A stretch of 64,000 nt of DNA from Escherichia phage Eryne. Every line of letters begins with the position of its first letter. Positions within the stretch are counted from its first letter, which is position 1. Shown in pieces: positions 12,416-12,478 of the stretch. Position numbers and translations under genes: made by a program. Under the pieces are notes generated by a model. It did not search any database. It saw nothing but the letters and a program-made list of their open reading frames with translations, and was not told the DNA's origin. The stretch lies in the sequence record PQ529420; one strand, written 5' to 3'.

Positions 12416-12478
12416 ATGATAATCATTCTCATTTGTAAATGAGAATCATTAGCAAATGAGAATTTTTCTCATTTAGAG
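12416..12478. repeat. cluster of overlapping palindromes with TAATCATT core (Fur-box-like)
   Basis: gataatcattctcatt, attctcatttgtaaatgagaat, aatgagaatttttctcatt. Confidence 0.5.

Follow-up and report, generated by a model that had tools for sequence, protein, structure and literature searches.

Fur-type boxes in a conserved non-coding region of the virulent phi92-like Escherichia phage Eryne

Introduction

What might a dense cluster of overlapping palindromes do in a mostly non-coding gap of a virulent coliphage genome? Positions 12416-12478 of a 64,000-nucleotide stretch of Escherichia phage Eryne (sequence record PQ529420), called the window below, raise this question. A preliminary description of the sequence had likened the palindromes to boxes for the host iron repressor Fur. 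Operators for Fur are well known from textbooks, both on bacterial chromosomes and at prophage cargo genes. The region around the cluster is 97-98.7% identical to Justusliebigvirus phages (phi92-like, Stephanstirmvirinae), and on this identity the window is that of a phi92-like, virulent Justusliebigvirus phage; these phages are large virulent myoviruses of E. coli. Weighing the sequence evidence below, we see about an even chance that the cluster is an operator array for the host Fur repressor in a conserved non-coding control region of such a phage.

Results

The palindromes match the Fur box

The cluster (atgataatcattctcatttgtaaatgagaatcattagcaaatgagaatttttctcatttagag) lies in the left of two large gaps of the window (11976-13455, ~1.45 kb), which is mostly non-coding. 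The repeat finder and the sequence itself bore out the overlapping palindromes of the preliminary description, with arms of 18 nt (12417-12434/12437-12454, 89%), 27 nt (12416-12442/12446-12472, 81%) and 15 nt (12436-12450/12461-12475, 87%). Direct repeats spaced 17 and 40 nt apart are also present.

The 19-mer GATAATGATAATCATTATC and the 7-1-7 unit TGATAATNATTATCA are established descriptions of the enterobacterial Fur box. We scored sites by counting matches to these motifs (of 19 and of 14, respectively), calibrated on real operators, instead of using a published Fur weight matrix. Both descriptions are also discussed in PMC2189734. Three boxes, A to C, make up the left cluster (Table 1); clusters hold three to five boxes, and 19-mer matches at 12412/12418 and 24652/24658/24664 are offset by 6 bp, a register that would let Fur polymerise.

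Six sites in the 64 kb scored at least 12/14 (12417, 12440, 13264, 23514, 24468 and 24663). All six lay within the left gap and the second non-coding gap (23517-24980), and the other 61 kb of the window had none. Dinucleotide shuffles of the left gap gave 0.017 such sites expected against three observed, and none of 300 shuffles reached three. For the right gap the figures were two observed and 0.05 expected, and for the whole window six observed and 1.09 expected, with a maximum of four in 100 shuffles. Low scores relative to shuffled A+T-rich background, the outcome on which the Fur likeness was to be given up, were not found by consensus counting against dinucleotide shuffles.

Two further matches in the left gap were set aside. 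The site at 13264 (12/14) overlaps the start codon of a 31-amino-acid open reading frame and is treated as probably incidental, and the site at 13395 (11/14) is merely the -10 region of a strong promoter.

For calibration, the same scoring was applied to three classical Fur targets of E. coli K-12, the divergent promoter regions of the ent-fep cluster. The scores were 11/14 for fepA-fes, 11/14 and 16/19 for fepD-entS, and 13/14 and 15/19 for fepB-entC. Since these operators score 11-13/14 and 15-16/19, the phage boxes match the consensus at least as well as real operators do. The resemblance to Fur boxes thus survived: the scores equal or exceed those of footprinted E. coli operators, stand far above shuffles, and belong to a position kept in two phage subfamilies.

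Box position is conserved across two subfamilies

A box of at least 12/14 was present at the homologous position in all 12 relatives fetched, from the subfamilies Stephanstirmvirinae and Vequintavirinae. The hosts of box-carrying relatives are Escherichia, Salmonella, Klebsiella, Cronobacter, Enterobacter and Pectobacterium. Among 28 loci from GenBank and IMG/VR that carry a conserved non-coding block (described below), several of them the same phage entered twice, 26 had a box upstream of the block at a distance of 130-240 bp. Of the other two, L049 extends only ~160 bp upstream of the block, and L086 has a gene inserted between box and block. The box position is retained across the two subfamilies despite diverged flanking sequence, and we regard this conservation, seen in sequence comparison, as the strongest evidence that the boxes have a function.

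The number of boxes varied by lineage: one in many Vequintavirinae, two to three in Phapecoctavirus, three in the window and in phage arall, and, through a 51-54 bp indel, five in phi92, alia and most other Justusliebigvirus. In Klebsiella-type Vequintavirinae, further boxes occur 9.3-10.4 kb downstream of the block, where there is another large non-coding region, and this layout, with a second set in a distant non-coding region, is the same as in the window.

The boxes precede a conserved non-coding unit

On the + strand of Vequintavirinae, an A/T tract (AAATTTTTT) is followed by TTGAAT, by an 18-nt spacer coinciding exactly with the Fur box, by CAGAAT and by G+C-rich hairpins; the tandem CTTTACA motif and the A+T-rich stretch around it come next, ahead of the ultra-conserved block. 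Box C of the window is homologous to the single strong Vequintavirinae box that fills this spacer. The GAAT of the -10-like hexamer at 12476-12481 is kept in every aligned relative but L086. In a distant-mode search, the DNA right of the boxes was ~90% identical in Phapecoctavirus, and a ~125 nt core was 84-85% identical in Vequintavirinae of Klebsiella, Cronobacter, Enterobacter, Salmonella and Pectobacterium. The block is non-coding, as shown by indels whose lengths are not multiples of three. Its + strand end consists of a 12-bp hairpin (12650-12684) followed by TTTCCTCTTCT, which the scan called terminator-like in the window and in KB57. The block matched nothing in 5,426 E. coli genomes, an Rfam 15 scan of 11000-26000 (E <= 1) placed no family at the locus, and no site complementary to the CTTTACA repeat occurs elsewhere within the window.

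Table 1. Boxes, promoter-like elements and conserved segments in the window
Feature	Position	Strand	Sequence	Remarks
Fur-type box A	12417-12431		TGATAATCATTCTCA	13/14; 19-mer 12412-12430, 15/19; also in phi92, alia and other close relatives
Fur-type box B	12440-12454		TGAGAATCATTAGCA	12/14; 19-mer 12435-12453, 15/19
Fur-type box C, proximal	12457-12471		TGAGAATTTTTCTCA	11/14; 19-mer at 12452, 13/19
Promoter-like site within boxes	12416-12445	-	TTCTCA-18-TATCAT	9/12; leftward; analogous site in Klebsiella phage KB57
-10-like hexamer	12476-12481	+	GAGAAT	18 nt downstream of GCAAAT (window) or of TTGAAT (Vequintavirinae)
G+C-rich hairpin-forming segment	12484-12527			Stems differ per lineage, e.g. 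CCGG...CCGG in CR9 and KB57
Second leftward sigma-70-like promoter	12536-12563	-	TTGCTT-16-TATTCT	Weak in window
Tandem motif	12578-12596		CTTTACA-N4-CTTTACAAA	Conserved; in A+T-rich stretch
Ultra-conserved non-coding block	12612-12697			Shared by Stephanstirmvirinae and Vequintavirinae; ~84% identity even in phages of Klebsiella, Cronobacter and Pectobacterium
Near-consensus sigma-70 promoter	12706-12734	-	TTGACA-17-TATACT	11/12; faces block; conserved in all lineages
Fur-type box E	23514-23528		TGATAATCATTCTTA	12/14; at stop codon of last right-end open reading frame
Fur-type box F	23572-23586		TGACAATCATTCTTA	11/14 (12/14 in phi92); past last right-end gene
Homolog of phi92 343-bp direct terminal repeat	24390-24732			97.4% identity
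Fur-type box G	24468-24482		TGATAATCATTATCA	14/14, 17/19; 79 bp into terminal repeat; counterpart in anhysbys
Fur-type box H	24663-24677		TGATAATTATTCTCA	13/14; 274 bp into terminal repeat; identical 15-mer in anhysbys

Convergent promoter-like elements flank the block (12484-12735). The second leftward promoter reads TTGCAA-17-TATATT (9/12) in KB57 and CR9. Both leftward promoters have a G+C-rich, hairpin-forming 17-nt spacer whose sequence is lineage-specific while the hexamers are fixed (12706-12734 in the window; also L006 and L007); a promoter with a terminator-like hairpin as its spacer is an unusual design.

In the Vequintavirinae contig L086, an open reading frame for a 197-amino-acid HNH-like protein (6420-7013, - strand) sits at the exact left edge of the block, with its ribosome-binding site 12 nt past the block. 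It looks like a homing-endonuclease insertion beside a highly conserved target.

An iron-responsive promoter as the proposed function

Binding of the boxes by Fur is a prediction, and what goes beyond the sequence match and its conservation we infer. In iron-replete cells, Fe2+-Fur would occupy the strong boxes at 12417 and 12440 and spread to the weaker proximal box at 12457, occluding the promoter-like elements embedded in the array. E. coli Fur is documented to bind clustered sites and to extend onto weaker ones, and its sites are typically clustered and overlap promoters (PMC2189734). Iron starvation would leave the site unoccupied, and the promoter would then be active. The most likely product would be a ~210 nt non-coding + strand RNA that starts near 12487, runs through the G+C-rich hairpins, the A+U-rich stretch and the ultra-conserved block, and ends at ~12697 with the hairpin and a pyrimidine tail. 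This RNA would be antisense to constitutive RNAs from the two conserved leftward sigma-70 promoters, and iron status would set the balance of sense and antisense transcription at the locus. The presence of near-consensus sites for the host iron sensor in conserved non-coding DNA and in the terminal repeat suggests that the phages read the iron status of the host.

The + strand consensus hairpin contains five G.U positions, two of which alternate between G.U and G.C among relatives; on the opposite strand all five would read as A.C mismatches. This alternation, the geometry of box and promoter and the terminator-like end tentatively favour the + strand as the functional one. Consensus fold energies were similar on both strands. 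A simple ACCAG/CTGGT hairpin was rejected as the conserved pairing, being broken in 10 of 21 sequences.

Several observations weigh against a Fur-controlled + strand RNA. The strongest promoters at the locus face leftward, and the HNH-like gene of L086 is positioned for reading from a - strand promoter through the block. The + strand promoter itself is poor in the window (GCAAAT-18-GAGAAT), and its Vequintavirinae counterpart (TTGAAT-18-CAGAAT) reaches 8/12 at best, below the scan threshold. Since Fur half-sites resemble -10 hexamers, promoter-like matches inside the array are partly automatic. Single-sequence folds compared with shuffles gave z = +1.5 and +0.3, neither strand being better, and the aligned block contained no compensatory double substitutions. 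No coding target lies within reach of the boxes in either direction. Finally, a role other than promoter control is hinted at by the boxes that lie within the terminal repeat and by those of the T5 injection-stop region, both described next.

Further boxes lie at the physical genome end

Phage phi92, whose ends have been determined, has 343-bp direct terminal repeats. Because 24390-24732 is the homolog of this repeat, the window spans the joined physical ends of the genome. The core motif does recur at 23.5-24.7 kb, as the preliminary description had noted, in boxes E to H. Its further remark that related motifs bracket the cassette array is correct to the letter yet misleads, since the right-hand set is part of the physical end of the genome and the bracketing is a by-product of that location. 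Boxes G and H sit inside the terminal repeat, and each virion DNA therefore has them at both ends.

These positions, too, are kept in relatives. The final 48.6 kb of phi92 has boxes scoring 12/14 or more at the same three non-coding places and at the homolog of 13264, and nowhere else. The terminal region of Phapecoctavirus anhysbys is 54% identical overall, and its boxes persist at analogous positions (13/14, 12/14 and 13/14); the counterpart of box E there scores 13/14. Counting boxes of at least 11/14, there are 8-11 per virion genome (8 in this three-box strain, 10-11 in phi92-type strains). The left cluster, itself outside the terminal repeat, lies 12.3 kb from the right end, or 8.3% of the genome. 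Whatever protein binds the left cluster probably binds the boxes near the genome end and in the terminal repeat as well.

Boxes were also found in T5-like phages. T5 (NC_005859) has boxes at 9554 (11/14), 9658 (13/14), 9693 (11/14) and 9699 (12/14), in the annotated injection stop signal (9554-9713), and the T5-like phage DT571/2 has a box array at 6971-7579 in the untranslated part of its long terminal repeat. A 14/14 match at 233 in T5 falls within the dmp coding sequence and was not counted as terminal non-coding. Virulent phages of two unrelated groups, both with terminal repeats, thus have Fur-type arrays in terminal non-coding DNA. A comparative description of the T5 region covers palindromes, repeats and DnaA boxes, and Fur is absent from it (10.1101/866236).

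The boxes may have a role at the level of the DNA. Host Fur might bind them for such a purpose instead of promoter control, an alternative that we consider rather unlikely. One version has the arrays at the ends and 12 kb inside pause or organise DNA entry, or protect or mark the termini. In another, the replicated phage DNA would soak up Fur like a sponge, and this titration would derepress the iron-uptake regulon of the host late in infection. Two strong boxes in the terminal repeat, and thus at both virion DNA ends, the arrays of the unrelated T5-like phages in an untranslated terminal repeat and in the injection-stop signal, the number of boxes per virion genome, and the fact that no box has a coding gene downstream all speak for a DNA-level purpose. 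The position of the left cluster at 8.3% of the genome is also close to the T5 first-step-transfer segment of 7.9% (10.1101/866236), but this agreement at ~8% may be coincidence. The sponge idea comes from copy-number arithmetic. Against both versions, the Vequintavirinae box lies exactly between -35-like and -10-like hexamers after an A/T tract, which is classical operator geometry.

A broader scheme joins the two kinds of role. Fur-box arrays would be a shared feature of virulent enterobacterial terminal-repeat phages (phi92-, rV5- and T5-like, the long-unexplained injection stop signal of T5 included), in which bound Fur, besides repressing a promoter, helps to stop or stage DNA entry, or marks or protects the termini, and couples the earliest transcription to iron. 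We offer it as speculation and consider it improbable.

Host Fur or a phage-encoded binder

A tblastn search with E. coli Fur found no Fur homolog in any phage of the two subfamilies; as a check on the query, it matched an enterobacterial fur gene in a 1.9-kb Salmonella-derived record at 99.3%. The exact Fur-type 19-mer AATGATAATCATTCTCATT was present in at least 120 IMG/VR contigs, compared with one contig for a composition-matched control 19-mer. The contigs vary in size and G+C content, often have clusters of 3-15 boxes, include T5-like phages, and may include proviruses with host iron genes. As the phages lack a Fur homolog and the motif is not private to their lineage, host Fur is the most economical candidate for the binder.

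The boxes could instead be operators for a dimeric DNA-binding protein encoded by the phage, such as an early repressor or a terminase or end-binding factor, with the likeness to Fur sites being coincidence or mimicry. The phage box consensus AATGAGAATCATTCTCATT, in which GAGAAT/ATTCTC is about as frequent as GATAAT/ATTATC, departs slightly but systematically from the textbook Fur box. The boxes lie near the termini, where packaging proteins act, and many small early proteins without assigned function are encoded close by. We nevertheless doubt this alternative strongly. Against the host consensus one site scores a full 14/14 and 17/19, higher than classical host operators. The occurrence of the motif in unrelated T5-like phages and in so many IMG/VR contigs fits a shared host factor better. 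These phages have no Fur-family protein, and no DNA-binding Pfam domain was found in the open reading frames neighbouring the boxes, where only NADAR and Phage_30_8 matched.

A replication origin or chance

Directly left of the boxes, at 12174-12394, lie three ~70 bp direct repeats that are 72% identical with spacings of 67 and 75 bp, each containing TTATTTAAAGTTTTT and TTTTGAAAATGAAAAGTTCAA. Phapecoctavirus has a single unit resembling this repeat, whose GAAAATGA part is a weak Fur-like box there.

The preliminary description had also allowed for a recombination or replication site, for which we found no positive support. On an origin reading, the 1.4-kb gap would be a replication origin in which the leftward promoters fire into a G-rich leader and the A+T-rich repeats and so prime DNA synthesis, with the palindromes as elements of the origin. 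Two conserved tandem sigma-70 promoters are indeed aimed at the A+T-rich repeats, the transcript would be non-coding, the leader of the - strand RNA is G-rich, and the sole annotation of the region in phages alia and inny, covering these repeats, is repeat_region. However, DnaA boxes (TTWTNCACA) are not enriched in the window (11 matches, 10.95 expected) and none lies in either gap; GC skew tracks gene orientation and shows nothing further at the left gap. The triplicate repeats were seen only in Justusliebigvirus, whereas boxes and block are conserved far more widely, and the Fur match of the palindromes is left unexplained. An origin at this site therefore seems very improbable to us.

That the palindromes are functionless products of an A+T-rich region, given that the Fur consensus is itself A+T-rich and -10-like, can practically be dismissed, as it is refuted by the shuffles, which never reach the observed counts, by the lack of sites in 61 kb outside the gaps and by the retention of box positions.

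Discussion

Relation to known Fur sites

Operator control by host Fur has close parallels on the E. coli chromosome. The phage boxes share with fepB-entC, fepD-entS and fepA-fes the 19-bp and 7-1-7 consensus, at equal or better scores, and they resemble the chromosomal operators in forming clustered sites with registers 6 bp apart, embedded in promoter-like hexamers. They differ in belonging to a strictly virulent phage with no iron-related or protein-coding gene downstream, and in having additional copies within a terminal repeat.

A further likeness is the RyhB gene, in which a Fur cluster lies directly before a small RNA gene (PMC2189734), as the phage boxes lie directly upstream of a ~200 nt conserved non-coding unit ending in a hairpin. 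The phage unit shows no similarity to RyhB in sequence or by Rfam and lacks a homolog in E. coli genomes; its tail is pyrimidine-rich and not a U run, and strong antisense promoters face it.

Fur sites are also known on temperate-phage DNA. The cargo genes sitABCD on lambdoid phages have Fur boxes (PMC6969025), and Fur clusters occur at the prophage genes nohA, ynaE and ydfK (PMC2189734). The likeness is that of a host Fur site on phage DNA, but the temperate-phage sites control accessory genes of a resident prophage and benefit the lysogen, whereas the boxes here lie in core non-coding regions of virulent phages, conserved across subfamilies. The stx1 promoter is a further Fur site on temperate-phage cargo.

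In T5-like phages, the untranslated repeat regions and the injection stop signal likewise have conserved, palindrome-rich, non-coding arrays of Fur-type palindromes in a direct terminal repeat. This likeness to T5 in terminal position holds for the boxes at 24468 and 24663 only, with the repeat mapped from phi92. The phages are unrelated, and the terminal repeats are ~10 kb in T5 as against 343 bp in phi92-type phages. Paired DnaA boxes occur in the T5 region (10.1101/866236), unlike the gaps of the window, which have none.

Full-text searches of open-access PMC and bioRxiv turned up neither a description of conserved Fur operators in virulent coliphages nor experiments on Fur binding to such sites, and no transcriptome for any phage of the Stephanstirmvirinae or Vequintavirinae. 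Fur boxes on prophage cargo genes were known already; the conserved Fur-type boxes in virulent coliphages are well supported at the level of sequence and, within these searches, appear to be new.

The boxes are core conserved features of strictly virulent, broad-host-range phages used in phage therapy (phi92-, phAPEC8- and rV5-like). If Fur binds them, these phages would sense iron limitation, a defining condition of the infected animal host and of the gut, and the outcome of infection would differ between iron-rich laboratory media and the in vivo setting. Control by host Fur also gives a concrete hypothesis for an ultra-conserved non-coding locus. For the boxes in the T5 injection stop signal, it would make Fur a new candidate host factor in that unsolved problem.

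Other features of the two gaps

A NADAR-domain gene adjoins the left gap on its left side. To its right, an array of small + strand genes (13456-23516), homologs of phi92 gp225-gp248, extends to the second gap; no tRNA or tmRNA was found in the window.

Within the left gap, a strong promoter at 13115-13143 is followed downstream by a consensus Shine-Dalgarno sequence and a start-stop mini-open reading frame, ATG-TAG (13198-13203). After it comes the open reading frame for a strongly hydrophobic 31-amino-acid peptide (MIKKENSLTVGTINAIILAVPFWVVVAVIIF, 13272-13367), whose start codon is overlapped by the 12/14 Fur-like site mentioned above.

The sequence AAAGGGGTGTG occurs exactly at 12002-12012, 24799-24809 and 24876-24886 and is confined to the two non-coding gaps, with 0.83 matches expected when up to one mismatch is allowed. 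Two of the copies have TATAnn ~15 nt further on, just upstream of the first left-end gene, and the sequence may be a phage-specific promoter element.

In the right gap, the sequence at the right boundary of the terminal repeat (AAAATCGCGTTA, with AGCAC following the boundary) is conserved in Phapecoctavirus. A non-coding element at 23960-24083 contains the hairpin-forming inverted repeats GCCTATG..CATAGGC and CGCAACAAT..ATTGTTGCG. It is ~80% conserved in Phapecoctavirus and in a Citrobacter phage, lies near the record end in several, and could be a packaging or end-related signal.

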